Source: a virus. Taken from it: a DNA stretch of 64,000 nucleotides. Below, one piece after another: positions 8,464 to 26,114 of the stretch. The notes under the pieces were generated by a model. It did no database searches and was not told the DNA's origin. It saw nothing but the letters and a program-made list of their open reading frames with translations. Both the position numbers and the translations under genes were made by a program. Location of the stretch: the IMG/VR virus record IMGVR_UViG_3300040816_000831; one strand, written 5' to 3'. Every line of letters begins with the position of its first letter. Position 1 is the first letter of the stretch.

Positions 8464-8640
8464 TTATGTGTCAGTTTCAATATAGAATGGATTAGGTACT
8501 ATAGCACCATTTGTTCTTATGCTAATTATTTTTTCTTCGTGTAATTTTTTAACAGCCCTTTCAGCACCTTCACGAATTCCAAGCTGCCAAGATTGATATG
8601 CGCATAAAGATATACATATTCCTACTAAGAGATATTCCAT
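8464..8640 (-). CDS. 58-aa membrane-anchored protein (MEYLLVGICISLCAYQSWQLGIREGAERAV...)
   Basis: Below the ORF-track cutoff; TAATG overlap with the upstream gene; N-terminal hydrophobic helix. Confidence 0.6.
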   Translation of the reverse strand: MEYLLVGICISLCAYQSWQLGIREGAERAVKKLHEEKIISIRTNGAIVPNPFYIETDT

Positions 8641-8846
8641 TAGATTCTTTCTAATGTTGCAATATAACCTTTTTTCAACATTCCTAAATAGAATTGAGTT
8701 GCACTTTTTAAACTATCAAATCTATAGTCTGCAATAATTTTTGATTTTTGTTTAGCTATTACTTTAAACATTGGTTGGTCTCTGTTATCTTTGGTATACA
8801 TAAACATCCATTTTCTCCGCAAATTTAAGAGGTAATGACTGGTCAA
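8640..8846 (-). CDS. Hypothetical protein (true start may be 8771)
   Basis: ORF within the early operon. Confidence 0.4.
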   Translation of the reverse strand: MTSHYLLNLRRKWMFMYTKDNRDQPMFKVIAKQKSKIIADYRFDSLKSATQFYLGMLKKGYIATLERI

Positions 8847-9108
8847 AAGCTCTAGGATGTCTTCCTAAGGATTTTGCAATTTTAGTTCTAGGACCTCTTG
8901 CTTGACATTTAACATAGTATCTAGGAAGCTTTGTTGGTTGTGTGACAGAATAACCATTTTCAAATCTATATTTAGACCATTTTTCATTATCTTTTGCATG
9001 TTTATTAACTATACTTATAGACTTTCTAAGTGTTTGTAATTCAAGCATATCGCCCGCGCTTCCTGTATGTGCTGTCATGACATAACTTGTTGTTCTTGGA
9101 TTTTTCAT
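8785..9108 (-). CDS. Hypothetical early protein
   Basis: ORF, operon context. Confidence 0.6.
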   Translation of the reverse strand: MKNPRTTSYVMTAHTGSAGDMLELQTLRKSISIVNKHAKDNEKWSKYRFENGYSVTQPTKLPRYYVKCQARGPRTKIAKSLGRHPRAFDQSLPLKFAEKMDVYVYQR

Positions 9109-9109
9109 A

Positions 9110-9322
9110 TTAATGTATTGGCCTCCCGCCTAAAGTTTCTAAAAAGAATTGTCCTGGTATATTATGGCCAGTTCTTAATTTGACTGACTCACATAATTTA
9201 TCCCAAGATTCATTTAATGTTTTTGGATTTTTATCTTTAGCCCAAGCTAGTTCGACTAAATCCAATTCGATATCTACAGGTGTATTTGTAGCGATGTGTG
9301 TTAGTGATAATACGTTTTTCAT
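9110..9322 (-). CDS. Hypothetical early protein
   Basis: ORF with AGGAG RBS and ATGA overlap. Confidence 0.6.
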   Translation of the reverse strand: MKNVLSLTHIATNTPVDIELDLVELAWAKDKNPKTLNESWDKLCESVKLRTGHNIPGQFFLETLGGRPIH

Positions 9323-9540
9323 ACTCTTACTCCTGTTTTAAGTTCTAGTACAGTTTTCATATGAAGGTCTTGACTTCTTTTCTCTACTAGCTGGTCAATC
9401 ACTTTATTTCTATCAGTGAAAGCCACTCTCATATCGAATGATTCACAAAGTCCTGGTCTCATGCCACCTTCCAATTCTCTTAGAATTGAACCTGTGCTCA
9501 TAGCTTGGACTTCTTTTTGTATTTTTTGTAATGATGTCAT
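9319..9540 (-). CDS. Hypothetical early protein
   Basis: AAGGAG RBS; first gene after the promoter at 9576-9604. Confidence 0.65.
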   Translation of the reverse strand: MTSLQKIQKEVQAMSTGSILRELEGGMRPGLCESFDMRVAFTDRNKVIDQLVEKRSQDLHMKTVLELKTGVRV

Positions 9541-9575
9541 ATTTAACTCCTTATCTTATTTTTAAATATAGATAT

Positions 9576-9604
9576 ATTATAACATACTTTAAAGCAAATG
9601 TAAA
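9576..9604 (-). promoter_or_regulatory. Early sigma70-type promoter TTTACA-N17-TATAAT
   Basis: One of 12 matching promoters in the window. Confidence 0.8.
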
Positions 9605-9652
9605 CGATTATTTTCACTTTTTTTGAAAATAATTGTGAGAAAGTGTTGATGT

Positions 9653-9689
9653 GAAAGAAAAGGTGGGGAGCTGTGATGGCTCCCCCATG
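9653..9689 (-). terminator. Intrinsic terminator
   Basis: GGGGAGC/GCTCCCC stem followed by a U-rich run on the minus strand. Confidence 0.75.
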
Positions 9690-9710
9690 ATAATCATTAC
9701 TAAAGGAGTG

Positions 9711-9893
9711 TTATACTTCTTTTGCTATAAAAGTGTATACACCGTAAGCAAGGGCTACCCAAGCTACTAAGTCAACAAGTCCACCTAGTAATAGGTAGGA
9801 TAATGATAGGCCGACAATAAGTCCGCCGTCCCAAGATGTACGTTCTGCCCATCTTGCCATTAACCATGCTTTTGCTGTATTTAACATATTCAT
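9711..9893 (-). CDS. Small two-helix membrane protein
   Basis: ERTSWDG motif followed by hydrophobic segments; GGAG RBS. Confidence 0.6.
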   Translation of the reverse strand: MNMLNTAKAWLMARWAERTSWDGGLIVGLSLSYLLLGGLVDLVAWVALAYGVYTFIAKEV

Positions 9894-9905: not shown

Positions 9906-11291
9906 CTATAGTTTGAAGTCAGCAAACGAGTCATTACTTTCTCGCTCACCAAACTTATTTATCGGCTTATCTGGCACCATTTCTGTCATAATGTCTGATT
10001 GAGCCGATTCCTCTACATCATATAGTTTCATGCGGGAACGGTCCACACCAATTACAAATCTCTTGTATTTGGTTGGGTCGTTATATCTATTCTTCAATTG
10101 TTTTACTAGCAATTGACCTAATTCTTCAAGTTCCTCTGTTGAAATAAGAGCAAACATTAAATCAGCCGTTGCTGGTAAACCAAACGATTCAGATGTATCC
10201 TCAAGACCGACGTCAGTATTACTGAAACCAGACCTCGTGGTCTGTGTTGCCGATACTATTGGAACATTGAATTCCACAGCCAAACCGCGAAGTTCTTCCG
10301 CAATGGCTTTAATATAAGTATAACTATTTATACTTCCGCCCATGCCACGCATGCGACTTGAGGCACAAATATTTAAATAGTCAATATATATCATATCAGG
10401 CTTAAATGTCTTTTTGAGTTTAAGCTCATTAAGTAAAGCTCTGAAATGACCAGTATGTGCAGAACCAGTAGGATATTCTTTTACTATAAGTTTACCTACA
10501 GATGATTTTGCAATTTTTCCAATCTTATCATCGAATACATTTTTAGGTAATGACCCAAGAGATTCGATTGGAAGGTTCATAAGATTCGCATCAATTCTTT
10601 CAGCGATTCTTTCTTCTGCCATTTCCATTGTTATGTACAATACATTCTTTCCTTGATTAAGTACTCCTGCTGCACAATGACACATGAATAATGACTTACC
10701 TACGCCTGTTCCGGCTAAGGCAATGTTAAGTGTCTTATTAGGTAGACCACCTTTTGTTATTTTATTAAAATAATCTAAATCAAACGGTATTCTATCTTCT
10801 TTACGATTATAAAAGTCAAACCTTTGTTCACTATCATCAATATAATCATGACCTATTTGTTCGTCAAACGAAACACCAAGAGCTTCAGATAGTATTTCAG
10901 GTATAGCACCTTCACTTCTTTCTTTATCTTTGCCATCAATGATTCCTATTGAATCCATAATAGCATTATAAACTGCTCTTTCTTTACACCACTTTTCTGC
11001 TTCAGCAATTAAGTAATCAGTATCGACATCAGATTTATCGATAATTTCTGTGATTAATCTTTGAGCATTATTTAATACATCTTCAGGTGCTTGAATTTTC
11101 TTTAACTCAAGTTCTAAGATTTTTGATGTTGGTAATTTATTATGTTTGCTTACAAATTGGACTATAAGGTCGAACACAGTTTTATGTGTACCTTCAAAAT
11201 ATTCATTCTTTAAATAAGGTACAACTCTTCTGCAGAATTCTTCGTTATGTAGAAGATGATTCAGTATGTGTGTTGGTAACTGATTCGTCAT
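9906..11291 (-). CDS. gp41: DnaB-like replicative helicase
   Basis: Walker A AGTGVGKS, YITMEM, IDYLNI, KQLKNRY. Confidence 0.97.
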   Translation of the reverse strand: MTNQLPTHILNHLLHNEEFCRRVVPYLKNEYFEGTHKTVFDLIVQFVSKHNKLPTSKILELELKKIQAPEDVLNNAQRLITEIIDKSDVDTDYLIAEAEKWCKERAVYNAIMDSIGIIDGKDKERSEGAIPEILSEALGVSFDEQIGHDYIDDSEQRFDFYNRKEDRIPFDLDYFNKITKGGLPNKTLNIALAGTGVGKSLFMCHCAAGVLNQGKNVLYITMEMAEERIAERIDANLMNLPIESLGSLPKNVFDDKIGKIAKSSVGKLIVKEYPTGSAHTGHFRALLNELKLKKTFKPDMIYIDYLNICASSRMRGMGGSINSYTYIKAIAEELRGLAVEFNVPIVSATQTTRSGFSNTDVGLEDTSESFGLPATADLMFALISTEELEELGQLLVKQLKNRYNDPTKYKRFVIGVDRSRMKLYDVEESAQSDIMTEMVPDKPINKFGERESNDSFADFKL

Positions 11292-11607
11292 TTCCTATTC
11301 CTATTGTTGCTTGATTAGTTTCTTTAGCGTATTCTAAAGAATCTGTTATTATATATTGTAGTACTGAACCTAAGTAATTTTTAAACGATTCGTCTTTCTC
11401 AAGTTCATCTACACTAAAATCTGCTGGGTCTTGTACTGTAAAGTTAAAGCTTAATGTTGCTATATCTAAGTTAGGGTCTTCTTTGACTCCAACTTGTCCA
11501 TATACAACTATAACATTCTTCCAAGTACCAGTTTTAAGTTTTACTCCTTGAAACGCACTATTGTCGTTTTCTACAATTGAGTAGTCTTTTTCGCTTATGT
11601 TGTACAT
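11245..11607 (-). CDS. gp40-like head assembly chaperone
   Basis: Position between uvsX and gp41 as in T4; size; YGQVG...LSFNF pattern. Confidence 0.55.
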   Translation of the reverse strand: MYNISEKDYSIVENDNSAFQGVKLKTGTWKNVIVVYGQVGVKEDPNLDIATLSFNFTVQDPADFSVDELEKDESFKNYLGSVLQYIITDSLEYAKETNQATIGIGNDESVTNTHTESSST

Positions 11608-12660: not shown

Positions 12661-12927
12661 TTATCTTCTCCTGGCTTTTGACGGCCTATTAAATGCATCT
12701 AGCATTCTTTGTTGTTTACGACTTCTAGAAACTGCTTCAGCTTTTTTTCTTTTCTTTTTAGCTGTAGGTTTTTCATAGAATTCTCTTTTGCGTACCTCTT
12801 GTACAATACCTGCGTTTTCACAGGCTTTTTTAAATCTTCTTAGACCAACATCAAAAGGCATTTCTTTTGATGGTCTTTTGTCTCTAGGATTTTTATTCTT
12901 CCTTGGACGTAAATCTATACTTGGCAT
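12661..12927 (-). CDS. rpsU: 30S ribosomal protein bS21
   Basis: [32 protein letters not shown] matches the gammaproteobacterial S21 signature. Confidence 0.92.
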
Positions 12928-12956: not shown

Positions 12957-12985
12957 ATTATAACATAAAATCAGTGAGTTGTAAA
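12957..12985 (-). promoter_or_regulatory. Early promoter for bS21-uvsX, embedded in the last codons of the upstream gene
   Basis: TTTACA-N17-TATAAT. Confidence 0.75.
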
Positions 12986-14145
12986 CTGTTTTTTTCATAT
13001 TCATAGGTTCTTTTTTTATTATCCTGTATTAGGAATTTAGTATCAATCATTTCAAGCTGATTGTTTAAATATTTTTGAACCATTTTTGCAGCATGCTCTG
13101 CTGTAGTCACTGGCACATTTTGGCATATATGGTTAAGTGACCTTTTAGGTTCAAGCAATATAAAATCTTTTGGTAGTTTCATAAGAGATAAAGCTTCTCT
13201 TACTGTTAAGTATCTATCTTCATCCGGATGAGTTAAGCACGTTGGCATATGTCCAACAAATGCTCCTATTTTATCTTTAGGAATCTCTGTAGTTTTTCTC
13301 ATGATATTACCACCAGCTTTGAGCTTATGATATTGCCTATCGCATTTCTTTGCAACATTATCATATCCATTTTCTCTCATCCATTTAGCTACTTCTTTAT
13401 ATGTTGTTCTTTCTTCAATGTAGTCCATTGGGTTTGTTGTCTTTTCTATTTTATCTTGAAATTCACTATGTGATATACCACCTTCTAATACTTCAAGAAC
13501 ATATCGATAATATGGTTCTTCAGAAGGTTTCTTTTCATTACAAAGAATTTGACTCATTGGGTCATCATCTTTTCTTTCAACTTCTCTTATATCATCAGCA
13601 ATCATTGTAGGTCTTTCTAGTACATATTCAAATAATGGTACTTCATTACCTTTCCAAAAGAAATAGAATGTTCTATCTCGTACTTGGCTGAGTCCATGTA
13701 GTATAGATTTTGTTTTAAAGATACTAAAAGTATATCCATTATCTTCTCCTATCTTCCTCAATCTTCTTACAACGGGTTCTCCCATCTTACTTGCAAGCCT
13801 TGGTGCGTTCTCTCCCCAAAATACTTTTGGTTGTACTTCACTAAGTACATATTCAGCAGATGTAAACATCCATTCGTTCATAGGATTATTACTTGCAGCT
13901 GATGGACTAAGTGAGCTGAGCCCTGCACATGGGCATACAGTATTAATCACATTAACTTTTTCTGTGTAACTCGCTCCCTCTGAGAGGTTCAAATATGGGA
14001 CCTCATGGTTATAATGATTTAATAAGTGAGATTCATTAGCTTGAAAGCCTTCATATGTCATAATATACTTTGGTCTTTCTCCAAAGACATTTTCCATTGC
14101 TATTGTTTCTCCACCTATTAGTGGTACTATACTCGCATAACTCAT
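12958..14145 (-). CDS. DNA C5-cytosine methyltransferase homolog with atypical SAM-binding motifs
   Basis: CPCAGLS (IV), GENA (VI), QVRDRTF (VIII), RYLTVREA (IX); motif I reads VPLIGG and motif X reads CQNV. Confidence 0.8.
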   Translation of the reverse strand: MSYASIVPLIGGETIAMENVFGERPKYIMTYEGFQANESHLLNHYNHEVPYLNLSEGASYTEKVNVINTVCPCAGLSSLSPSAASNNPMNEWMFTSAEYVLSEVQPKVFWGENAPRLASKMGEPVVRRLRKIGEDNGYTFSIFKTKSILHGLSQVRDRTFYFFWKGNEVPLFEYVLERPTMIADDIREVERKDDDPMSQILCNEKKPSEEPYYRYVLEVLEGGISHSEFQDKIEKTTNPMDYIEERTTYKEVAKWMRENGYDNVAKKCDRQYHKLKAGGNIMRKTTEIPKDKIGAFVGHMPTCLTHPDEDRYLTVREALSLMKLPKDFILLEPKRSLNHICQNVPVTTAEHAAKMVQKYLNNQLEMIDTKFLIQDNKKRTYEYEKNSLQLTDFML

Positions 14146-15122
14146 GCAAAAAACTCCTCTAGTCCAGCCTTTTCAATTCCATTCCAATATGGATAGAACT
14201 CTCTGGATAAATGTATTGATTGTGGTTTCTCCATATATTTAAAATCGAGCTTACCTTCTTTATTAAAGAGATGACCGGTCCATCTTTTGATACCGTATTC
14301 TTTCTCTATGTAATCGTTAAATTTATTTCTTGCATCATTTCTTTCTGACCAAGAACCGTAAAATGGTTGTCCTTTATAATATCCTGATTGCGGTATTCTT
14401 CTACTTACATCTTCTATTGGAAGCAACTCATATATCTTTGCATTATACTTATGAGCTTCTTCAATATACCTATCAGCTAAATCTTCTATCTTTTGTCCTA
14501 GTCTAATTACATGATGTCTTATATCAATATTACCAAAATAGCATTCAAGCTCTTCATAATCGTAAGGAATGTATTTATCAAATCCTTCGTTTAAAGCTCC
14601 ATTTAAAGTTTTGAATGGAACACTGTTTACTGTCCAACCTGGTCGATACATGCAGATGGAATGACTATCACCAATAACTATTTTAGAAGTTGGATTAGGA
14701 TAGTCGATTCTTTCAGCTTCATTAAACATGCGTTCTAGATTTTTAAGGTCTACATCATGCCATTCCGGTTGAACCTCTTTCTTAGCCGATTCCAGTTTTG
14801 ATTTAACCATTTCGTGATACGGCGGGAAGTCGATTCCAATTGAAAAGACTCTGCCTTTGAACTTAGAAAAGTTGACAGTGTTCTTAACATAAGGAAAACC
14901 GTATACGCCACCAAACATATTAATTCCACCACTCCAATCAGTGCCGTGATAGACCCAAAGACTATCATAATCATTGTGGTCTTCAATTTCTCCACCGTAG
15001 TTAACATCGCAGTTTCCATATTTCTCCTTTATCATATCGCCATACATTACTCCTGCAGCTCCTCTATGAGAAGCAGCTCTCTTAGCTATTGGAATAAATG
15101 GACAATTAATTATATTTTTCAT
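14142..15122 (-). CDS. SGNH-hydrolase-like protein with C-terminal clamp-binding-like motif
   Basis: IGDSH, FGNID and SIHLS blocks; ends GLEEFFA. Confidence 0.55.
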   Translation of the reverse strand: MKNIINCPFIPIAKRAASHRGAAGVMYGDMIKEKYGNCDVNYGGEIEDHNDYDSLWVYHGTDWSGGINMFGGVYGFPYVKNTVNFSKFKGRVFSIGIDFPPYHEMVKSKLESAKKEVQPEWHDVDLKNLERMFNEAERIDYPNPTSKIVIGDSHSICMYRPGWTVNSVPFKTLNGALNEGFDKYIPYDYEELECYFGNIDIRHHVIRLGQKIEDLADRYIEEAHKYNAKIYELLPIEDVSRRIPQSGYYKGQPFYGSWSERNDARNKFNDYIEKEYGIKRWTGHLFNKEGKLDFKYMEKPQSIHLSREFYPYWNGIEKAGLEEFFA

Positions 15123-15129
15123 TAGATAT

Positions 15130-15158
15130 ATTATACCATACTTTTGTTCAAATGTAAA
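15130..15158 (-). promoter_or_regulatory. Early promoter (probably a leaderless transcript)
   Basis: TTTACA-N17-TATAAT, 7 nt from the ATG. Confidence 0.8.
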
Positions 15159-15163
15159 CGTTT

Positions 15164-16228
15164 TTATTCAAAGAATTCACTAAGGGTATTAGTCTTTTGT
15201 ACGCGCGCCACGCGTCTACGCGCGCATGCTCGCTCGTCTTCTCTTATCTGTAGGTATACACCAAACTGACATGACAACACTTCAGTTCCGTAGTATTTAA
15301 GAGAATCTTGTTCATATTGAAATAATTTACTACCGTCTTTCTTATTTATATTGAAAGCTTTTGGATGAAATACAACATCTTTTGTTAATCCTATTTCATC
15401 TGAATTTTCTCTCATATAGTATATTGCTTCGTCATACAATTTCTTTGGAGCTTCTGGCCACATTAATTGTATTGTATACACAGCTCCTGGACCCGGCGAT
15501 ACAAATCTTTGGTCATGATGATACTTCATTTGTGGTAATACAGATGAAGAAGCAGCTCCATGGAATCCGTAATAATGTCCTATGCCAGGTTGTTCTCTTA
15601 AAAGAGTATAAATCTCTGACATATGATTACATTGTTGCATTCGTTCTAAGAAACCAGTATCTCTAAAAGAAGATACCCATTCACAAACATCAACTGCATG
15701 AAACTTTCTATCTGGTTCGTTATACTTTTCACGACAATAGTTTCTAGCAGCAGTTTGTATAGATGTGTGTAATTCTGTTGTTCCCCAAATTGGTTGCTTA
15801 TTCTTTATTGCTTTATCTAAATTATTACGAACATATTGAATATAATCTTTATTTCCATTTGCTATTCTATCAAAATCAACAAAGACGTTATCTTCTCCTG
15901 AAGCAAGAAAATGAACTCCTCTTCCACCATAGAAATGAGATATAAAAGTATTACCTACAATATTCATTATTGTAGTATCTAGACTTGCTATCTCTTGACC
16001 AATAAATCTCATACGGTCATCAAGTGTAATTGTTGGATGAAAATATTCTACATCTTCGCCAAGACCAAAATCATTCTTGCCATGACGATTTACTGATTCA
16101 TATTGTTCTTTTGAATATCCAAGTTGTATATTAGACCTTTCATTAACTTTATATAGAAACCAATTGAACTCTTTCATGAGTTCTTTATCGTAATTCGACC
16201 AATCGTAATTATATTTAGTACTTGACAC
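15164..16228 (-). CDS. aGPT-Pplase1 / 5hmdU-DNA-kinase helical-domain-like protein
   Basis: ER..I, YF...LDDR, PGIG and FVSPGPGA motifs resemble this DNA-glycosylase-fold family; ends TLSEFFE. Confidence 0.6.
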   Translation of the reverse strand: MSSTKYNYDWSNYDKELMKEFNWFLYKVNERSNIQLGYSKEQYESVNRHGKNDFGLGEDVEYFHPTITLDDRMRFIGQEIASLDTTIMNIVGNTFISHFYGGRGVHFLASGEDNVFVDFDRIANGNKDYIQYVRNNLDKAIKNKQPIWGTTELHTSIQTAARNYCREKYNEPDRKFHAVDVCEWVSSFRDTGFLERMQQCNHMSEIYTLLREQPGIGHYYGFHGAASSSVLPQMKYHHDQRFVSPGPGAVYTIQLMWPEAPKKLYDEAIYYMRENSDEIGLTKDVVFHPKAFNINKKDGSKLFQYEQDSLKYYGTEVLSCQFGVYLQIREDERACARRRVARVQKTNTLSEFFE

Positions 16229-16628
16229 GTTCCTCGTTATCTCTCTTTAAATGAACAATTGATATATCAGGACATCTTTTTTTAATCTCTTTGATTTGAA
16301 TTGGGTCATCTTCGAAATGCATTTCTATTTCTACTCCCAAGTCTTTTAACATATTAATCATTTGTCCTTTAAAGATACCAGAAGCTTTTCTGCCATATAG
16401 TGGATTTTCTTTTACTCCATGAGTCACTTTATGATTTTTTAGTTTTCTTTCAAGTGGATTCATGTAAAGAGTATTATATATTCCTCTAGATTCTAGCATT
16501 TTTACTGTAGCTTCTCTATCAGCAAAAGGCCGCCCAGTAATGATGATGTCATCTTTACCGGGTCTTACGCCTGTGGTGCTTTCACCAAAATAGATTACTC
16601 CATCGATGTCAAACGAATTAATTTTCAT
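16215..16628 (-). CDS. HAD-superfamily phosphatase (start revised to MKINSFDIDG)
   Basis: FDIDG, ITGR, K and FEDD motifs. Confidence 0.85.
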   Translation of the reverse strand: MKINSFDIDGVIYFGESTTGVRPGKDDIIITGRPFADREATVKMLESRGIYNTLYMNPLERKLKNHKVTHGVKENPLYGRKASGIFKGQMINMLKDLGVEIEMHFEDDPIQIKEIKKRCPDISIVHLKRDNEERVKY

Positions 16629-17910
16629 AATCATTCTTCGCATCTTGGAAGGTGTGAGGCAAATCTGCTGCCTTCGGTCTATTCTCTTTGAGCTGTGGAG
16701 TAGTAATATCTGTCAATACTCTCCTAGCTAAAGCATCACATTCAAATTTGGCATCTTGAGTTTTGAGCTGTAATGGAGGAGTCTTTTGAGTCCATGCTGA
16801 TGGTCCTCTTAAATATCCTACAATGCCCATCTCTGAAGCTACCTTACAAAATCTAATTGCTGAAACAACAACTCCACCAGAGTTTGGAGAGTCTTGAACT
16901 GAAAGTCTAGCTGACATTTCATATCTTGCTCCTGCAAATCCATAAGCAACCATATCAAAGTTAGCTATTTTATTATCAGATGAGATATAATCTCCACCTG
17001 GTTTTTGTTGAACAGTAAGAGATGGACCAGCAAATAATGTCATACCTGCAGTTGATTCTCCTCTTACGCTGTTTTGTCCTTTTAAAACATTTTCTTTTGA
17101 TACATGTTTGTTATGTAATCTATATTGTTTTGCCATATTCAAGAAGTCAGTATTTGCTGTTCTTCCTGTTCTTATATGCTCTTGTCCTTGTGTAGAACCA
17201 GCAGCCATATTCATTTGAATGTGTTGTGTTACCATTAAACCTGAATCTAACATAGCACCTTGTAGAACTTCTGACATTCTTGAAGCTCCCCAGGCTGACC
17301 TCATATCTGAACCAACAATTGTAAGTCCTGCATCTATGAATCTTTGTTCAGTTATCATAGCATCTTCTGTTGAAATCAATGTCGGTATACAGTTTACGAA
17401 ATGTATTCCTGCATCTAACGCAACATCAATCCAGTATTTAGAAGCTTCTTCTGAACCAACTGGTAAATAGTTAATGAGTACATCTACATCATGATACTGT
17501 AGTAACTCAACAGTTCTTTCAAAAGATTCTGCTGGTACAGCTCCATTTACAAATGTGACTTCATCTGGATAATCATGCATGTGAGGAGCTATTCCGTCCA
17601 TTTCTGGAGCTGAATAGACCATTGCATCATTATTTACAGCTGAACTATTTGATGTAGTTGTTATTTTTTCGACATGGTCCATAGCGCAATTAGGTTGAGC
17701 TCTTAAAGCTTTTGCTAATTTTTTATTTACTTTCCTTTTATCGATATCAAATCCAATAACAAACTCGATGTCGTGTACTGAATATCCGCCGATATCTTCA
17801 TACATTAGACCAATTTTGTCTTCTGGATTTTCGTTATAATATTGTACACCTTCCACTAAAGACTTTGCACAACTTCCGACGCCGATTATTCCGGCTTTTA
17901 TTTTTGACAT
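16618..17910 (-). CDS. ino1: myo-inositol-1-phosphate synthase
   Basis: GVGSCAKSLVEG NAD fold, NYLPVGSEEA, FVNCIP, NTDFLNM, SK, DNK, DSPNSGG. Confidence 0.9.
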   Translation of the reverse strand: MSKIKAGIIGVGSCAKSLVEGVQYYNENPEDKIGLMYEDIGGYSVHDIEFVIGFDIDKRKVNKKLAKALRAQPNCAMDHVEKITTTSNSSAVNNDAMVYSAPEMDGIAPHMHDYPDEVTFVNGAVPAESFERTVELLQYHDVDVLINYLPVGSEEASKYWIDVALDAGIHFVNCIPTLISTEDAMITEQRFIDAGLTIVGSDMRSAWGASRMSEVLQGAMLDSGLMVTQHIQMNMAAGSTQGQEHIRTGRTANTDFLNMAKQYRLHNKHVSKENVLKGQNSVRGESTAGMTLFAGPSLTVQQKPGGDYISSDNKIANFDMVAYGFAGARYEMSARLSVQDSPNSGGVVVSAIRFCKVASEMGIVGYLRGPSAWTQKTPPLQLKTQDAKFECDALARRVLTDITTPQLKENRPKAADLPHTFQDAKNDYEN

Positions 17911-17972
17911 ATTATTCTCCTTATATCAGTTTATTTGAGTGAGAAATTTGACTGGCGTACCAGAGTAGCTCA

Positions 17973-18278
17973 CTATATACTATTAGTTATAACACTTATC
18001 AGACCACTTCCAAGGATAATGACTGCTGCTGTGTTTAAAATTATCAATGCTCTATCTTTCCAGATAAGAGCTACTATTAACCAACCGAATGTTCCAACTA
18101 AGGAAAACGCTTGGTCATAGAGAGCAAGGTCAGGATTAGACCTGCTTGCCATAGCAATTAAAAGAATAGCTGATGCTACCCATTTAATATACCAATCAAT
18201 TGTATACTTAGGAGTTGCGCTCTTAAATATACGCTTTGAATTTTTTATTTCTTGTTCGTTAAATTTCGGTGAATTCAT
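17973..18278 (-). CDS. Small multi-pass membrane protein (DUF6552-like)
   Basis: WYIKWVAS...W.DRALI.LN pattern; three hydrophobic segments. Confidence 0.6.
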   Translation of the reverse strand: MNSPKFNEQEIKNSKRIFKSATPKYTIDWYIKWVASAILLIAMASRSNPDLALYDQAFSLVGTFGWLIVALIWKDRALIILNTAAVIILGSGLISVITNSI

Positions 18279-18699
18279 ATTTTACATTAGCCTCTTTAAA
18301 TATTTCATGTGTTTTTTCTATTGCTTCTTTCCATCTATCTGGAGTATTTTCTGAAAGCGATACAACTCTAGATATTCCTGCTTGTATTATACCTAATGAG
18401 CAATGACCACAAACTGGTAAACCATAAATATATAATATAGAATCTTTTAAAGATATTCCATTTTCTGCAGCATTATATATACAATTCATTTCTGCATGAA
18501 CTACATATTGATACTTTGTTTCTCTATGATTATATCTTTCTTTACTATCTTCAATACCTTTAGGAAATCCATTATATCCTGTTGCTAATATTTTTCTATC
18601 TCTTACAGCAATTGCACCTATTTTTCTACTTGGGTCTTTACTCCATGTAGATATTTCACGAGCAATATCAAGAAATCTTTTATCCCACTTATTTAACAA
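18259..18699 (-). CDS. cd: dCMP deaminase (likely TTG start at 18699)
   Basis: SKDPS, GYNG, HAEMN and PVCGHC zinc motifs. Confidence 0.9.
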   Translation of the reverse strand: MLNKWDKRFLDIAREISTWSKDPSRKIGAIAVRDRKILATGYNGFPKGIEDSKERYNHRETKYQYVVHAEMNCIYNAAENGISLKDSILYIYGLPVCGHCSLGIIQAGISRVVSLSENTPDRWKEAIEKTHEIFKEANVKYEFTEI

Positions 18700-19366
18700 G
18701 GTCAAAGTGCCTCTCATACACATGTAAGTTTTGTACTTGCCAATAAATTTTACCACCACTTTTAAGTGGATGACCATTATAGTATAAATCTTTTTCTAGT
18801 TTTTCTAATACGTATTTTTGCCAAGCGTAATCATTTCGATAACCATATACAACGTCATTACTTCTCATTTGAACTACACAATGTAATTGTTCATCTCTTA
18901 TATAATATGTAACAGCATTTGTACAAATAAAATCATTCTTACCATCTTCTTTAAATTCGCGCCAGATACTTGGTCTTTGATATACCATTGAAGCTCTACG
19001 AGAATCTGGATTAATTTCACTTAGTTCTTTTACTACTTGATTATATTGTCTATGAAATTTTTTACTGAATATAAGATGACCATAATTAGAATTGATTTCA
19101 CCATAATCATTTGCAGAATATTCCCATGCTGCTGGCGACTTACCATATATTTCAGCAAGTTTATTAATATTAGTTGACCTAGAATTATACCATTCTATTT
19201 CAGCATCAATATATTCTTGATTGGGTTTACCAAAAATTGATGGCTTATCTGCTAGAAAAGACGCAGCAAATATTTCGATTGTTTTACAACCAGTCTTATC
19301 ATCGGTAAACTCTTTGTTTTTAAGTTTATCGATAAACGTATTTGCGATATCTTTAGTCTTCAACAT
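18689..19366 (-). CDS. gp42: dCMP hydroxymethylase (gp42-like, thymidylate synthase fold)
   Basis: DFICTN, MRSNDVVYGYRNDYAWQKYVL and LHVY closely match T4 gp42, including the dCMP-specifying Asp. Confidence 0.85.
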   Translation of the reverse strand: MLKTKDIANTFIDKLKNKEFTDDKTGCKTIEIFAASFLADKPSIFGKPNQEYIDAEIEWYNSRSTNINKLAEIYGKSPAAWEYSANDYGEINSNYGHLIFSKKFHRQYNQVVKELSEINPDSRRASMVYQRPSIWREFKEDGKNDFICTNAVTYYIRDEQLHCVVQMRSNDVVYGYRNDYAWQKYVLEKLEKDLYYNGHPLKSGGKIYWQVQNLHVYERHFDLVK

Positions 19367-19682
19367 TACTTACCTTTTTGTTGAACATATCTCTTGTTGG
19401 GTCTTGGCCTTCCATTTTACCTCGAGCATAAGCAACAGCAAAAGAACAATAGTTAATCATATCTTTATAAGTATCTTCAATACTTTCGAAGTTTGGGTCA
19501 TCGGCTGATTCAAGCAATGAAGTTGCTCTCATCATTTTACCAAGAATAATATCATGAATCGTATCAATGCCACGTCTATAATGCATGGCTTGGACTACTG
19601 TTGATTCAGAACTTTGATAGTCTTGGGATTTTTTAGTTTGTAGTTCTGCGCATTCTTGCAGGACTCTTAAGCTTTCTTTCAT
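19353..19682 (-). CDS. Nucleotide-modification-associated domain 1 (DUF1599/MazG-like)
   Basis: KKSQDY...K..R...ESIEDT..D..NY pattern. Confidence 0.7.
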   Translation of the reverse strand: MKESLRVLQECAELQTKKSQDYQSSESTVVQAMHYRRGIDTIHDIILGKMMRATSLLESADDPNFESIEDTYKDMINYCSFAVAYARGKMEGQDPTRDMFNKKVSNVED

Positions 19683-19711: not shown

Positions 19712-19740
19712 ATTATATCATACTTTTGGTTAAATGTAAA
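19712..19740 (-). promoter_or_regulatory. Early promoter heading the nucleotide-modification operon
   Basis: TTTACA-N17-TATAAT. Confidence 0.8.
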
Positions 19741-21387: not shown

Positions 21388-22301
21388 ATATTATTTTTAA
21401 ACACGAATTCAATAGCTCGTGCTGCCTCCTTTTCTAAATCTCTTTTATTATACCACCCACCAGTATCAGTATCTAAATCTCTACAGATATATTCGATTTC
21501 TTTTGGTGTAATTGGATAACCTTTACTATGAGCATTACCAGCAGTTGTTAACATGATTTGATACATTTTTGCATACCAACCAGTTCCACTGATACCTTTA
21601 TATTCGTCAACTTGTTTTTTATTAACAAAAGGACAATCACGATATGATGTCCACGTATAATTTGTATTGTTCAATTCATTTCTTTTTCTTTCAAGTAACG
21701 CTTTTTGTATTGCTTCTGGAAAACGATCGAACATTGTTTGATTAGGTTTAACGTATGGATATTGTTCCATAAGTTTATGTGGGTTCATAATATCTCCATC
21801 GTGAGAAAATATGAAATTAAAACTGTTTTTGTATTTAGCAGGAACATAATACATTCTGCTTAAGTCTTTGGTTTGAGCATCAGCAATATCGCCAATCTCT
21901 TTGTTTAAAGCATACCAAAAATGCTTAATGTCTTCTTTATCAACGAATTCTGTTAATGGAAAGACGAGTCTAAACTTTGGTGATTCAACTGTAGATGATG
22001 CTGTTGAATAACATACATAACGATACTTATCATACTTTGATTCAATATCTTTCATATCGCCTTCATAATCATCAATATCAAGAATACCAAAGCCGGCCCA
22101 ACCAACAACATTATCATTTGCACGAGTAGTACTAGTTTGATATATTGCTGGACTTAAAAGCGGAGCATCTTTCTTTGTAGGATATTTAGTCGACTCAGAA
22201 AGCTTATAGAGAATAGCCTCGAACTCGTCGAAACTATTATAATCCATACGCTTATCTGTTTTGTTATCGTATATATTATCGAATATTGTGCAACTTACCA
22301 T
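21384..22301 (-). CDS. AEP-superfamily primase/polymerase-like protein
   Basis: ILDIDD, YSTAS..SPKFRLVFPL, D...KD.SRMYYVP; PriCT-like C-terminus. Confidence 0.65.
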   Translation of the reverse strand: MVSCTIFDNIYDNKTDKRMDYNSFDEFEAILYKLSESTKYPTKKDAPLLSPAIYQTSTTRANDNVVGWAGFGILDIDDYEGDMKDIESKYDKYRYVCYSTASSTVESPKFRLVFPLTEFVDKEDIKHFWYALNKEIGDIADAQTKDLSRMYYVPAKYKNSFNFIFSHDGDIMNPHKLMEQYPYVKPNQTMFDRFPEAIQKALLERKRNELNNTNYTWTSYRDCPFVNKKQVDEYKGISGTGWYAKMYQIMLTTAGNAHSKGYPITPKEIEYICRDLDTDTGGWYNKRDLEKEAARAIEFVFKNNI

Positions 22302-22689
22302 GATTTCCTTCGTGACTTGGTCCTTCCCAACCTTCTGGTTTGATTAGGTCTGGTAATCCTAGTGGATTAGGTCTTTCAGGTTTTACTCCTACTGTTTTAT
22401 TTAAGTTTGCTTTTAGAACTTCATCCCAAGCTTTATATGGGTCAATACCAAATGCATCAAGTGTTCCAATAGCAACAACACATATATCGATTAAACCATC
22501 GACAATTTCTTCTGCATCGTTATTGGTTAATGCTGCTTCAGTTTCCATAAGTTCTTCTCTTATAAATTTGATTCTAAATCCAAGATAAGCACGTAGCTTT
22601 TCAGCGTTGTCTTTATTATCATGAATCCATTTATGAACTCCATACTTATACTGCATGTCTTGAATATCTTTTATCCAGTTTTGGCTCAT
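22276..22689 (-). CDS. MazG-like NTP pyrophosphohydrolase
   Basis: EELME...EIVDGLID, ANLNK, LIKPEGW. Confidence 0.8.
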   Translation of the reverse strand: MSQNWIKDIQDMQYKYGVHKWIHDNKDNAEKLRAYLGFRIKFIREELMETEAALTNNDAEEIVDGLIDICVVAIGTLDAFGIDPYKAWDEVLKANLNKTVGVKPERPNPLGLPDLIKPEGWEGPSHEGNHGKLHNIR

Positions 22690-23013: not shown

Positions 23014-23586
23014 TTAATCCCAATTAATTGCAGGTATTTGTCCATAAAATCCTTGAGTTGCTTTTAATTGAGTAGGAAAATATTTAGAAAGCTTCTCAAT
23101 ATCTCCATGATCGTAATTTAATTTAGGCAATCTTGCCTCTTTCTTTTGAACTATAACAGATACATCATATCCATAAGTTCTCACAGCTGCATCTGAACAG
23201 TCAAATCCAGCTAATATAAGATTATATAATAATAATCCTGCATTCCATAATGAAACATGTCCACCAACAATATTGTGTCTAAGTGGTGGAACAGATATTG
23301 CAAGAATTCCATTTGTATCTATAAGATGAAATATCTTACTTAAAAAATGATGTACATTCAATTGATGTTCAAGTGTATGTGCACACCAAACACAATCAAA
23401 ATTTCTATCAAAGTCGATTGTATTAAAATCACCTTGATAATCTGATTCGAGTATATCTGTTGTATAAACTTTTTTACCTCTTTCTTTAAACATATTAGAA
23501 AACTTTCCATCACCTGCGCCAACATCAAGTACTGAATTAAATTGAAAATCTGTTACTAACTTTTCAAAGGTGAGTAAACTTCTCAT
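23014..23586 (-). CDS. Class I SAM-dependent methyltransferase (start revised to MRSLL)
   Basis: VLDVGAGDG, FDCVW.AHTLEH; ATGA overlap with the gp43 stop. Confidence 0.85.
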   Translation of the reverse strand: MRSLLTFEKLVTDFQFNSVLDVGAGDGKFSNMFKERGKKVYTTDILESDYQGDFNTIDFDRNFDCVWCAHTLEHQLNVHHFLSKIFHLIDTNGILAISVPPLRHNIVGGHVSLWNAGLLLYNLILAGFDCSDAAVRTYGYDVSVIVQKKEARLPKLNYDHGDIEKLSKYFPTQLKATQGFYGQIPAINWD

Positions 23587-26114
23587 CCGAAAAAATCCTC
23601 CAGGCTTGCAACTTCTTTCGAAGTCCAACCTACTGCTTCCAAGACCGGTTCAATAGGATCGAGGAATGTTTTTTGAAACTGTGTTTCATGGTCGATGTAT
23701 TTTCTTAAGCCAAACTCATCTGGAAGATAAGATGGGAAAGCAATTACATTTTCATGAATTGAATTTGGTTGACGAAGATATATGAACTTAATCTTTTCGC
23801 CATTGTTTATAAGTTCGTATTTCTTTTTAAGCTGATTGTCTTCAATTAGTTTATTGTAAAGAATAGCTCCACGAACATGTATAGGCGTTCCTTTTTTATA
23901 GAGGGTATTTCTATCTTGGAACTTTTTAACTTGAGTCACTCCGCGCGGAAATGCAATCTGGTCAGGTTCAAGAGTTTTGAAATAGTTCTTAAACTGTTCG
24001 ATAGCTTGTTGAACTGTATTTTCATCTTCTTTCATTATGACTTTGAATATATTTTTAAGAGCATCACGACATGGTTCAGGTGTAGAAGACTTAATTGCTT
24101 CAATACCCATAATCTTAAGCTTTGGCTCGGCATATCTCACGCCTTCGTTATCATGTACATTCATAATATATCTTTTCTTTGCAGTCCAAAGCGCACGGTC
24201 AGCGATTGCTTCACGTTTCATAACCATACGATTATCTACTCCACCAAGATACTTATACAATTGCTCATAAGACTTTTCAAGCTCTGGTTCAAGCGCTTCA
24301 CTAGCAACTTTATCTAGAAAGTCGATTGTATTTTCAGGTTTGAATTTTTGTACAAAGTCGTTTAAGCATACATACAGCGAGTCTGTGTCGATAGCAATAA
24401 CATAGTCTTTCCATTTTTCAGGTTTGAGCACTCTATTGAGATAGGTGTTAAGCGAATATTCGGCCCATCGAATTGTAAGTTGTCCGGTGAGGGTAATTGC
24501 TTCTGCGATTCTCTGGTCAAAGAATCGAAAATAGCGATTGCCAAGAGCGCCATACAAACTGTTAAGAAGAATCTTAATAGCCATTTGTCTGTTTTCGGCA
24601 ATTGCAATATCTCTTTCAATTTGATATAATTTTTGTTTGTCATTTTTATCTACCTTTTCTTTTTCTTTTTGAGCGTTAATCATTTCTTGTTTAATACCAA
24701 CACGCTCTTTATACATCTCATCGATAATGAATGGTATTATACCTGGCTTATCTACATTAAAATATTGTCCATTAGCTGCAAGAGCTTTACCTTTATTAGG
24801 AGCGATACGATGTTCGCTTATAGCACTATCAATATCGAATTGAGCAATCTCTCCATTAGCAATCGTTTCAGGCGACATATTGTATTGCATAATGATTGAT
24901 GGATAGAGAGAGTTTAAGTCAAAAGAAACAACGTTATCATGTATTCCTACTTGTGGGTCTTTAACAAAGCCACCTGGATAGTTAGACTTTACTTTATCTT
25001 CAACGAAAGGTATAGCAATATTGTTTGCAAATAATCTGCGATAGATAATCGTATCCCATATCATTGTAGTACCGAATGTATCGTTATAGTTAACGCCAGC
25101 TTTATATGCCATTGTCATACAAAGAGTAATCAATCCAAGCTTATCTTCGATTTTGTCGACAAGCTCAACGTCTTTGATATTATAGTCAATAAACTTTTGG
25201 TGATTATGCTTGTAAAGAGTATGAAGATTCGAATACTCATCATAAGATAGTTTCTTTTCTCCTAACACGACATGAGCAATGTTATCAAGTTTATAAGATT
25301 CTTGTGGTCCATAAGAATAACCAAACTTCTTAAATAGGTCGAGGTAATCAAGTTGAGATATACCTTTAAGTTCATAAGCAGTTTGAGTCCTTCCCATCTT
25401 AGTTACGTCTTGTCTATCAATCATTCCCCAAGGACTGAGTCTTTTTACGTAAGCTTCTCCAAGCATACGATTGATTCTATTCACAAGGTATGGAATATCA
25501 AAGAACCTTGAATTCCAGCCAGTCACGACATCAGGACAATATTGTTGAGATGACCAATGAGTAATAAAATTAATAAGCAAGTCATCTTCACGGTCAAACT
25601 TACGATATACTACCATGTGGTCTTTCATATAAGATTTGTCAGTATCATAATCACCTAAGCCCCAGACATAATAAGTATTGCCAATATTGTTTTTCATACA
25701 AATGGCTGTAATCTTATGGTCGGCTTTTTCAGGCTCAGGGAATCCATCGTCAGAAGCAACTTCAATATCAATTGTTGATACGTTGATTTTGTTTCGATCG
25801 AATTCGATATTACCAGGATAGTAATCATTAATGAATGCTGGAACGTACTTTGTGTTTCCATATATCTTTTTACCAGATACGCCTTTATTAGCTTGAACAT
25901 ACTCGTTAGCAGTTCTCATGGATTCGAACCTTTTGCCAGCATTTGCTACACCTACAGGATTTCCATCAAGCGATTTCCACTTGGTAGGAAGATTGGTAGA
26001 TGTAAAAAGGATTGGTTCGTATTTGACTTTCTTTTCAATTCGTCTTCCGTGGTCATATCCTCGTAAGAGAATCATATTACCATATCGAGACACATTAGTA
26101 TAGAATTTCATCAT
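23583..26114 (-). CDS. gp43: Family B DNA polymerase
   Basis: DIE exo I, FDLNSLYPS, KILLNSLYG, DTDS, KKRY; C-terminal SLEDFFG clamp peptide. Confidence 0.98.
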   Translation of the reverse strand: MMKFYTNVSRYGNMILLRGYDHGRRIEKKVKYEPILFTSTNLPTKWKSLDGNPVGVANAGKRFESMRTANEYVQANKGVSGKKIYGNTKYVPAFINDYYPGNIEFDRNKINVSTIDIEVASDDGFPEPEKADHKITAICMKNNIGNTYYVWGLGDYDTDKSYMKDHMVVYRKFDREDDLLINFITHWSSQQYCPDVVTGWNSRFFDIPYLVNRINRMLGEAYVKRLSPWGMIDRQDVTKMGRTQTAYELKGISQLDYLDLFKKFGYSYGPQESYKLDNIAHVVLGEKKLSYDEYSNLHTLYKHNHQKFIDYNIKDVELVDKIEDKLGLITLCMTMAYKAGVNYNDTFGTTMIWDTIIYRRLFANNIAIPFVEDKVKSNYPGGFVKDPQVGIHDNVVSFDLNSLYPSIIMQYNMSPETIANGEIAQFDIDSAISEHRIAPNKGKALAANGQYFNVDKPGIIPFIIDEMYKERVGIKQEMINAQKEKEKVDKNDKQKLYQIERDIAIAENRQMAIKILLNSLYGALGNRYFRFFDQRIAEAITLTGQLTIRWAEYSLNTYLNRVLKPEKWKDYVIAIDTDSLYVCLNDFVQKFKPENTIDFLDKVASEALEPELEKSYEQLYKYLGGVDNRMVMKREAIADRALWTAKKRYIMNVHDNEGVRYAEPKLKIMGIEAIKSSTPEPCRDALKNIFKVIMKEDENTVQQAIEQFKNYFKTLEPDQIAFPRGVTQVKKFQDRNTLYKKGTPIHVRGAILYNKLIEDNQLKKKYELINNGEKIKFIYLRQPNSIHENVIAFPSYLPDEFGLRKYIDHETQFQKTFLDPIEPVLEAVGWTSKEVASLEDFFG

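Follow-up and report, generated by a model that had tools for sequence, protein, structure and literature searches.

Thymidine hypermodification in the phages ViI, M6, PaMx11 and PhiW-14 is carried out by a dUMP hydroxymethylase, a 5-hydroxymethyldeoxyuridine (5-hmdU) DNA kinase and an amino-acid:DNA transferase (AADT, also called aGPT-Pplase) (PMC8989533, PMC5889632, PMC11472151). We analyzed a cluster of nine genes in the IMG/VR virus record IMGVR_UViG_3300040816_000831 (one stretch of 64,000 nucleotides, referred to below as the window), which appears to follow the same plan: a hydroxymethyl-pyrimidine would be made before replication, a helix-hairpin-helix enzyme with a Glu-x3-Cys motif would then act on the polymer, and genes are exchanged by recombination as modular cassettes. 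Unlike in those systems, the hydroxymethylase of the window is of the dCMP-specific T4 gp42 type, a two-domain SGNH protein of 326 amino acids (aa) stands where a P-loop kinase would be expected, and the supply genes, for a myo-inositol-1-phosphate synthase (MIPS) homolog and a small HAD-type phosphatase, are predicted to yield a cyclitol and not an amino-acid derivative. The putative transferase (354 aa) matches PF18723, not PF18724, and a C5-cytosine methyltransferase homolog is attached. We conclude that the cluster is a DNA hypermodification island at the position of the T4 gene 42/beta-gt locus, and we consider it moderately probable that inositol made by the phage becomes attached to 5-hydroxymethylcytosine (5hmC) in DNA.

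The cluster occupies the place of the T4 gene 42/beta-gt locus, flanked by gp43 and uvsX-41, and shares with it the gp42 enzyme and, by prediction, the post-replicative decoration of 5hmC. In contrast to T4, no nucleotide-sugar gene and, as an earlier note on this DNA had already observed, no glycosyltransferase is recognizable in the cluster at threshold; the cluster encodes AADT-like and SGNH-like enzymes with clamp-type tails. The arabinosyl-5-hydroxycytosine clusters of RB69 and DLP3 sit in this part of a T4-like genome too and likewise combine a thymidylate-synthase homolog with a free-sugar-type route (a sugar-phosphate enzyme and a small HAD protein), whereas RB69 uses a 5-hydroxy-dCMP enzyme followed by a kinase, a nucleotidyltransferase and GT-B transferases (PMC13326640). 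A MIPS-HAD pair next to an AADT-type enzyme is also present in Caulobacter phage Cr30, Ralstonia phage RP13 and the viral contigs L138 and L147, whose MIPS proteins are 38%, 59%, 74% and 76% identical to that of the window, respectively. Unlike in the window, a dioxygenase hydroxymethylates on the DNA and a P-loop kinase activates in the TET/JBP-type clusters (Cr30, L138, L147) and RP13, and the 326 family, gp42 and the C5-methylase homolog are absent from them.

Linkage of inositol synthesis genes to DNA modification genes

Loci were fetched from IMG/VR by MIPS alone, using three query alignments that differed in order; of 595 pattern matches, 475 were confirmed as MIPS relatives. Neighboring genes were marked by BLASTP with proteins of established family. 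Flanks of at least 6 kb were available for 163 loci, and flanks of at least 4 kb on both sides for 89. Base-modification markers were found within 3-7 kb of MIPS in 155-156 of the 163 viral loci, of which 133-134 represent the pyrimidine type and 22 represent the 7-deazaguanine type. When MIPS proteins were clustered at 70% identity, 23 of 27 clusters showed linkage to modification genes, including some located away from uvsX, gp41 and gp43. The earlier note had named a failure of MIPS to co-occur with DNA-acting genes in relatives as a refutation of its reading, and the linkage found here does not refute it. Dozens of IMG/VR contigs, with identities as low as about 50%, show the gene set of the window cluster in synteny, and in remoter contigs it is still clustered although its order is shuffled. 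Since synteny recurs so widely and the set is kept despite reshuffling, the arrangement is not due to chance, and comparative genomics strongly favors the view that the DNA-acting genes are supplied by the inositol genes.

MIPS and a phosphatase occur with three mutually exclusive architectures: gp42 with the 354 and 326 families; TET/JBP with an AADT and a P-loop kinase; and 7-deazaguanine genes. Among the 89 loci, 50 carried the 354 and 326 families (30 of them also gp42, 28 the methylase homolog), 15 carried TET/JBP, AADT and kinase, and 19 carried FolE and QueC; the remainder had an AADT only (2), the 354 family only (1) or no marker genes near MIPS (2). The pairs 326/kinase, 354/AADT and gp42/TET were mutually exclusive. 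Cultured phages represent these variants. Cr30 combines TET/JBP, an AADT (E 1e-52) and a TAGT-like protein with MIPS, HAD and a kinase; RP13 has an AADT-like protein, HMUDK_hel (E 3e-47), MIPS, HAD and an HMUD2 kinase; and Stenotrophomonas phage Moby, like contig L129, has FolE, MIPS, HAD, QueC, DpdA and QueE. Accordingly, in the cultured MIPS-HAD phages without the 326 and 354 families (Cr30, RP13, Moby) the kit always lies amid base-modification genes. The 326 and 354 families also occur in cultured Aeromonas T4-like phages having gp42. The two pyrimidine architectures look like one three-step logic, in which gp42 or TET/JBP would make the hydroxymethyl group, the 326 protein or the kinase would activate it, and the 354 protein or the AADT would substitute it. 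The inositol kit is the shared extra and looks like a payload supply. Because both pyrimidine architectures share it, we favor an inositol ether of 5hmC as the likeliest product.

The MIPS protein of the window aligned with Mycobacterium tuberculosis Ino1 (1gr0) over residues 3-389, that is, over its full length including the catalytic domain. All Asp/Lys active-site motifs (DD/SD-x-K/R-S, N-x-D-F, K-x-x-S-K, D-N/R-K, D-S and K-x-P-P) are present, their catalytic roles being presumed here from yeast and archaeal structures, and D202, NTD255F, K268..SK272, DNK314, DS341 and K376 are invariant across five phage lineages. A five-membered-cyclitol synthase (6k96) matched as well, more weakly (E 5e-25). 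The phosphatase carries the HAD motifs D12-x-D14-G-V, G37-R38, K92 and E111-D112, all invariant in 15 diverse homologs, with T36 and D113 each retained in 90% or more. It matched a polynucleotide kinase family (phrog_415), and neither a Pfam match nor, by sequence or profile search, a PDB match was obtained. MIPS has this phosphatase as its fixed partner downstream, within 1.5 kb in 136/163 loci. Together, the two enzymes should turn glucose-6-phosphate into free inositol. No similarity was found between this phosphatase and RB69p051, the phosphatase of the arabinose pathway, and for this reason the two were probably recruited independently.

The 354-aa AADT-like protein

The earlier note had taken the 354-aa protein for a kinase of hydroxymethyl-pyrimidines. 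This is refuted by its Glu-x3-Cys motif, by its best fold match and by the lack of a P-loop. The predicted structure (predicted local distance difference test, pLDDT, 90) was closest to PaMx11 gp46 (8z2n), a 5-phosphomethyldeoxyuridine (5-PmdU) glycinyltransferase, with Z 10.9 and a root-mean-square deviation (rmsd) of 4.0 over 220/288 residues, followed by DUF2419 (Z 8.7) and by helix-hairpin-helix base-flipping glycosylases (Z 6-8). The sequence E316-V-L-S-C320-Q contains the sole E-x3-C of the protein and is invariant in 33 homologs; Glu-x3-Cys is also found in the PF18724 AADTs of Cr30 and L147, in the RP13 proteins and in a fusion protein of Aeromonas phages. PF18723 was the only hit of the protein, which did not match the curated AADT model PF18724, and a sequence-profile search of the PDB with the 354 family gave nothing usable. 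No homolog of the L147, Cr30 or RP13 kinases was found in the window. The motif and the fold match point to a transferase of AADT-like type rather than a kinase, which we do not file as a member of the AADT family.

The Cys and Glu of this motif are essential in M6 gp51 and ViI gp247 (PMC8989533), and the equivalent residues of gp46 are Glu243 and Cys247 (PMC11472151). An AADT uses this Cys to attack C6; once the leaving group has gone, a nucleophile can add to the exocyclic methylene that has formed (PMC8989533, PMC11472151). ViI gp247 employs the hydroxyl of serine and forms an ether, which provides a precedent for an oxygen nucleophile, and aGPT-Pplase/AADT enzymes act not as kinases but by displacing the phosphate put on by a separate P-loop kinase (PMC8989533).

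The 326-aa SGNH protein

The earlier note had called the 326-aa protein SGNH-like, and both its predicted fold and its invariant GDSH and GN motifs agree with this. In the predicted structure (pLDDT 84), residues 140-314 form an SGNH fold (Z 10-12.5, rmsd about 3 Å over about 150 residues), and the best 50 rows of both fold searches were all SGNH-type entries or designs on that fold. The blocks G151-D152-S153-H154 (block I, with the nucleophilic Ser) and G197-N198 (block III) are invariant in 23 homologs. H304 is invariant too, as are the nearby E298 and S302, and the residue at -3 from the His is not the Asp of block V (DxxH). The profile search of the PDB with the 326 family gave nothing usable, a weak match to Oskar OSK having E 0.2, and a BFVD fold search returned family members and SGNH proteins only. 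For the N-terminal domain (1-139), an ESM Atlas search gave a single viral cluster at 0.75 and was uninformative.

Aeromonas phages 44RR2.8t and 31 encode the 326 and 354 families as a single fusion protein of 795 aa. In the 89 loci, the 326 family was always accompanied by the 354 family and never by a kinase. Because of this mutual exclusion with the kinase, the 326 family is a candidate activator of the hydroxymethyl group.

The C5-methylase homolog and the clamp-type tails

The C5-methylase homolog keeps CPCAGLS (with the PC of motif IV), GENAP (motif VI), QVRDR (motif VIII), RYLTVREA and QNVP, which are conserved across the family. Of the two motifs, I and II, that hold S-adenosylmethionine in such enzymes, motif I is atypical, reading (I/V)PL(I/V)GG (IVPLIGGE in the window) and not FxGxGG throughout the subfamily, including a stand-alone cyanophage homolog from S-TIM61, and the position expected for the Glu of motif II varies between E, D, K, S and G. 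At each syntenic locus that reaches beyond the 326 gene, the homolog follows the 326 family. In cyanophage S-TIM61 (S-TIM5 group; L298 6989-8206) the same subfamily occurs alone, with the motif I IIPLVGGS, without a clamp-type tail and without other genes of the cluster. This stand-alone occurrence indicates that the subfamily can work alone.

The three putative DNA-acting enzymes end in similar tails: LSEFFE in the 354-aa protein, LEEFFA in the 326-aa protein and LTDFML in the C5-methylase homolog, compared with LEDFFG in gp43 and LELFM in gp55 of the window. In T4, gp43 and gp55 dock on the gp45 sliding clamp. A C-terminal L..F[FLM] was found in 5/74 minus-strand open reading frames (ORFs) of at least 80 aa, namely gp43, gp55 and the three cluster enzymes; the hypergeometric chance of all three enzymes being among those five is about 1.5e-4. 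The tail is conserved within the families, and the nucleotide and inositol enzymes of the cluster are without it.

Nucleotide genes

The hydroxymethylase of the window matched T4 gp42 (1b5e) across residues 15-224. The context of the catalytic Cys is kept ('DFICTN' versus 'DFMCTN' in T4), as is the cytosine-specifying Asp (Asp179) in 'RNDYAW', which is the same as in T4 and reads 'RNNYAW' in the D179N mutant chain 6l18. The chains 9iqu and 9iqc, listed as thymidylate synthase in the PDB table and presumably of the 5-hydroxy-dCMP synthase type, matched at E 6e-8 only. The dUMP-selecting position is Asn177 in E. coli ThyA numbering and is Asp in dCMP enzymes, and the thymidylate-synthase homologs of RB69 and DLP3 were recently shown to yield 5-hydroxy-dCMP (PMC13326640). 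Since the match and the kept residues are of the gp42 type and identity to RB69 gp48, a flavin-dependent 5-hydroxy-dCMP synthase, is just 26%, the thymidylate-synthase homolog of the window is assigned as a gp42-type dCMP hydroxymethylase with 5-hydroxymethyl-dCMP as the expected product.

The Nmad1 gene stays ahead of gp42 in most relatives, and the dCMP deaminase gene adjoins gp42 in most of them. The Nmad1/DUF1599 family is reported by Iyer et al. (2013) to be an all-alpha MazG-like nucleoside triphosphate pyrophosphatase. Together with a MazG-like protein encoded at 22689-22276, Nmad1 is a candidate for the removal of dCTP. The small DUF6552 membrane protein is confined to close relatives.

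Proposed pathway

We propose that Nmad1, possibly with the MazG-like protein, and the gp42-type enzyme would lead from dCTP and dCMP to 5-hydroxymethyl-dCMP, that replication would place 5hmC in the DNA and that the deaminase would supply dUMP. In a second step, MIPS would cyclize glucose-6-phosphate to inositol phosphate, from which the HAD phosphatase would free myo-inositol. These two steps are indicated by homology, and we infer the third. In it, the 354-aa protein, the 326-aa protein and the C5-methylase homolog would ride the sliding clamp via their gp43-like L-x-x-F-F/M tails. The 326-aa protein would activate the 5-hydroxymethyl group in place of a P-loop kinase; given its Ser-His SGNH site, we guess that an acyl ester may be the likeliest activated product. 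Cys320 of the 354-aa enzyme would then attack C6 and expel the leaving group to give the exocyclic methylene, to which a hydroxyl of inositol would add, leaving inositol bound through an ether to the methyl carbon at C5, equivalent to what ViI gp247 does with the serine hydroxyl. The C5-methylase homolog, optional in relatives, may protect residual C or perform a similar Cys-C6 chemistry. More tentatively, this would amount to a kinase-free route in which a clamp-tethered SGNH enzyme activates hydroxymethylcytosine, for example as an ester, and a clamp-tethered, Cys-dependent AADT-like enzyme adds the inositol ether, the same kit being reused on 5-hydroxymethyluracil (hmU) in Cr30 and RP13 and on 7-deazaguanine DNA in Moby; taken as a whole, such a route is possible without being probable.

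Several observations weigh against the attachment of inositol to 5hmC. SGNH enzymes are usually esterases, and the activating role given to the 326-aa protein is argued from the complementary distribution and the fusion, in a cluster that has no kinase; its N-terminal alpha/beta domain matches no assigned fold. For the 354-aa protein, a Z of 10.9 lies in the range that helical proteins reach through arrangement alone. When its family was compared by hhalign with two PF18724 AADTs, no significant match resulted, the second profile consisting of two sequences, and because of this and the unmatched PF18724 we use the label AADT-like. Numerous counted loci are closely related, so the counts overstate independent events, although the pattern recurs across distinct MIPS clusters. 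In addition, 19/89 MIPS loci are 7-deazaguanine clusters with neither an AADT-type enzyme nor a hydroxymethyl group. Since these hold the kit without an AADT-type enzyme, the kit has a role independent of the transferase, and since they lack hydroxymethyl chemistry, a nucleophile for hydroxymethyl-pyrimidines is not the whole story. The earlier note's inositol pathway is thus retained in the linkage of MIPS-HAD to DNA-modification genes and modified in these respects, the 354-aa protein being no kinase. The adduct, its linkage, the donor or binding of inositol and the target base (hydroxymethylcytosine or hmU) are all proposals. Every characterized AADT acts on 5-hydroxymethyl-uracil and not on cytosine (PMC8989533).

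Alternative explanations

The substrate range of the known AADTs leads directly to a variant of the pathway in which the decorated base is hmU, the deaminase converting hydroxymethyl-dCMP to hydroxymethyl-dUMP and the AADT-like enzyme acting on hmU. The Nmad1-gp42-deaminase trio stays together in several MIPS clusters, and in T4 the cd gene is not adjacent to gene 42. The sister TET/JBP architecture has no nearby C5-methylase, which fits the oxidation of T to hmU, and the characterized AADTs and 5-HMUDKs all use hmdU (PMC8989533). However, the deaminase is an ordinary member of the dCMP-deaminase family, an AT-rich phage (34% GC) needs dUMP for dTTP regardless, and the C5-cytosine-methylase homolog suits a cytosine context better, so that we regard the hmU variant as rather unlikely. 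It is unlikely, too, that the product of MIPS and HAD is a cofactor, a carrier (nucleotide-activated inositol phosphate) or a protective or regulatory molecule, while the 354 and 326 proteins attach, say, an amino acid or an acyl group. Such a role would agree with the kit in 7-deazaguanine clusters lacking an AADT-type gene, always as MIPS-HAD-QueC, with variants that add a small cytidylyltransferase (L147, L154, L134) or a GT1 glycosyltransferase (L086, L138), and with the free amino acids that known AADTs take, for which no dedicated supply genes are needed (PMC8989533). The kit is nevertheless, besides the transferase-type enzyme, the sole element common to both pyrimidine architectures, and relatives with the 326 family swap it for other supply genes at the same place.

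Neighbors in phage early regions are often unrelated, and the inositol pair might belong to an auxiliary metabolism that has nothing to do with DNA and has landed in an accessory hotspot around gp43, uvsX and gp41, between which the genes indeed lie in the window, Moby, L129 and L147. In the MIPS clusters C1-C4 (94 usable loci), however, MIPS adjoins the markers while uvsX, gp41 and gp43 are mostly not within 7 kb; the set stays together when the gene order is reshuffled; and a co-localization of 95% compares with an estimated chance of at most about 15% (15-25 kb neighborhood, genome of at least 150 kb). We judge this explanation very improbable. Equally improbable is that the 326-aa protein is a highly divergent relative of T4 beta-glucosyltransferase (BGT) and that the DNA carries ordinary glycosyl-hydroxymethylcytosine. 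The T4 map has beta-gt between gp42 and uvsX, the Pfam model T4-Gluco-transf gave a hit on residues 29-94 (E 0.087), and Foldseek returned whole-length matches to T4 BGT entries with probabilities of 0.57-0.95. The Pfam score was 13 bits against a cut-off of 27, though, and the BGT alignments had an rmsd of 15-18 Å and a template modeling (TM) score of about 0.3. BGT was not among the top 50 rows of two VIA-align searches, which were SGNH-type with Z up to 12.5; the invariant GDSH and GN are SGNH blocks, and the cluster has no genes for the synthesis of nucleoside diphosphate sugars. The assignment as BGT was set aside on the weak Pfam score, the poor rmsd, and the SGNH fold and motifs. Attachment of phage-made inositol to 5hmC remains the reading we prefer.

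Gene layout and source phage

The earlier note had placed nine genes, mostly overlapping, on the minus strand at 19682-12958; this layout was recovered at the same coordinates, and each of its family calls proved reproducible (Table 1). Overlaps between adjacent genes are mostly 4-38 nucleotides, and that between gp42 and the deaminase is 89 nucleotides when the longest ORF is used. The note had also proposed two promoters for the cluster. Two near-consensus sites were located, on the basis of consensus match only, and a third, identical site (TTTACA-17-TGnTATAAT, 11/12) precedes bS21. Promoter-like sites overall showed no excess in the region over shuffled sequence, and only these three sites are noteworthy.

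Table 1. Genes and promoter-like sites of the cluster, in window coordinates
Feature	Position	Strand	Evidence
Promoter-like site before the first gene (Nmad1)	19712..19740	-	TTTACA-17-TGnTATAAT, 11/12, extended -10; intergenic; consensus match
Nmad1/DUF1599 protein, 109 aa	19353..19682	-	Pfam PF07659 E 1.5e-7; phrog_1485
dCMP hydroxymethylase, T4 gp42 type, 225 aa	18689..19366	-	PDB 1b5e E 1e-67; PF00303 E 6.5e-14
dCMP deaminase, 172 aa (longest ORF)	18259..18777	-	PF00383 E 3e-19; phrog_174 E 7e-46
DUF6552 small membrane protein, 101 aa	17973..18278	-	PF20189 E 1.5e-17; hydrophobic segments in sequence
MIPS homolog, 430 aa	16618..17910	-	1gr0 E 5.7e-49; PF01658 31.3 bits, cut-off 27
Small HAD-type phosphatase, 142 aa	16215..16643	-	Four conserved motifs; phrog_415 E 5.6e-7
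AADT-like DNA transferase (predicted), 354 aa, clamp-type tail	15164..16228	-	PF18723 (HMUDK_hel) E 1.2e-11; fold match 8z2n
Promoter-like site before the 326-aa gene, identical to the first	15130..15158	-	11/12 with TG; inside the 41-nucleotide gap between the 354-aa and 326-aa genes
Two-domain protein, 326 aa, alpha/beta N-domain and SGNH/GDSL domain, clamp-type tail	14142..15122	-	Predicted fold, motifs
C5-cytosine methyltransferase homolog, 395 aa, clamp-type tail	12958..14145	-	PF00145 E 1.6e-15

The window has a GC content of about 34%, and its minus strand carries nearly all genes. Its nearest DNA polymerase relatives are 'Phage C48C1' (52% identity) and T4-like cyanophages (about 47%), and its gp55 is 58% identical to that of C48C1 and 45% to that of Pelagibacter phage HTVC008M. 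The source is an uncultured marine T4-like myophage with no cultured close relatives as judged by DNA polymerase. Downstream of the cluster follow bS21, uvsX, a 120-aa ORF (11245-11607) and gp41. From the order bS21-uvsX-gp40-gp41 given by the earlier note, bS21, uvsX and gp41 were recovered, and its 'gp40' corresponds to the 120-aa ORF, which is without a Pfam match. The bS21 gene (12661-12927, Pfam E 2.8e-17) lies directly after the cluster and is kept there in most close relatives.

Upstream of the cluster are gp43, a class I methyltransferase, a second MazG-like protein, a primase and others. The second MazG-like nucleotide pyrophosphohydrolase (137 aa, 22276-22689) and the class I S-adenosylmethionine methyltransferase (204 aa, 23014-23628), both between primase and gp43, are candidate members of the nucleotide side. 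Elsewhere in the window, a 458-aa protein (4592-5968) combines a weakly cytidylyltransferase-like N-part with DUF5824 and is adjoined by a DUF6267 protein (5987-7228). It is related to a 275-aa nucleotidyltransferase of L129 (E 1e-13); our guess is that both proteins may be nicotinamide mononucleotide adenylyltransferase-like. The L129 cytidylyltransferase was considered as an inositol activator and set aside, its homolog in the window lying away from the cluster.

Variant clusters in relatives

The conserved DNA-acting core adjoins changeable small-molecule supply genes in relatives. In 44RR2.8t (ORF234c-ORF233c; L004 5408-9388) the 795-aa 326/354 fusion adjoins an SGLT/SMIT-type sodium:solute symporter, and the molecule that this phage attaches may be taken up from outside rather than synthesized. 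In Aeromonas phage 25 (L005 4776-8047) a UDP-galactopyranose mutase lies beside the 326 homolog, together with a 358-aa protein. A 37%-identical mutase is found in a marine variant with a pyridoxal phosphate (PLP) enzyme, represented by L074 and L076 (at about 1182 in L076). In this variant (L074, L076) a 459-aa protein and a PLP enzyme take the place of MIPS-HAD; in L076 (5688-9978) the replacement consists of the 459-aa protein, the PLP-dependent (PALP) enzyme and YopX, and a 353-aa protein of L076 has the E-x3-C motif and is unmatched by the 354-family profile.

Some MIPS clusters contain a small, 146-aa cytidylyltransferase-like gene (L147 10588-11028, L154 about 7934, L134 about 691), which in L154 sits between Nmad1 and gp42 and is absent from the window. 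Its presence suggests that these variants may use a polyol phosphate activated by a nucleotide. In the 7-deazaguanine clusters the order MIPS-HAD-QueC is fixed (Moby, L002 9001-11482; L129 9998-12435; L240; L242), and their MIPS proteins are 44-47% identical to that of the window. L129, a 129-kb viral contig, carries a TnpB/IS605-type gene (8557-9828) on the opposite strand within its FolE-DpdA-MIPS-HAD-QueC cluster, and in RP13 an Acb1 anti-CBASS gene (ORF132, L001 12631-13221, E 9e-15) separates the MIPS-HAD pair from the HMUD2 kinase.

Significance

Literature searches on inositol synthesis or a cyclitol base in phage DNA modification, on pelagimyophages, and on Cr30 and RP13 found nothing relevant. 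Newly recognized here are the AADT-like nature of the 354-aa protein, the SGNH domain of the 326-aa protein, the shared clamp-type tails and the MIPS-linked architectures. From this pattern, roles can be predicted by correspondence (gp42 with TET/JBP, 354 with AADT, 326 with the kinase), with a possible ATP-independent activation of 5hmC. An inositol adduct of hydroxymethyldeoxycytidine would be isobaric with the glucosyl adduct and could have been overlooked. The cultured kit carriers Cr30, RP13 and the Menderavirus group (Moby) put the question within reach of mass spectrometry.

Hypermodifications of phage DNA determine whether restriction, CRISPR and type IV defense succeed, and they are a source of enzymes for DNA labeling and sequencing. 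If the proposed pathway is true, it would provide a natural DNA base that is new, as well as a new route for activating hydroxymethyl-pyrimidines. Marine viromes are rich in this cluster family, the search with the 326 family having returned 912 proteins, and an inositol-bearing base would then be common in the DNA of ocean viruses.

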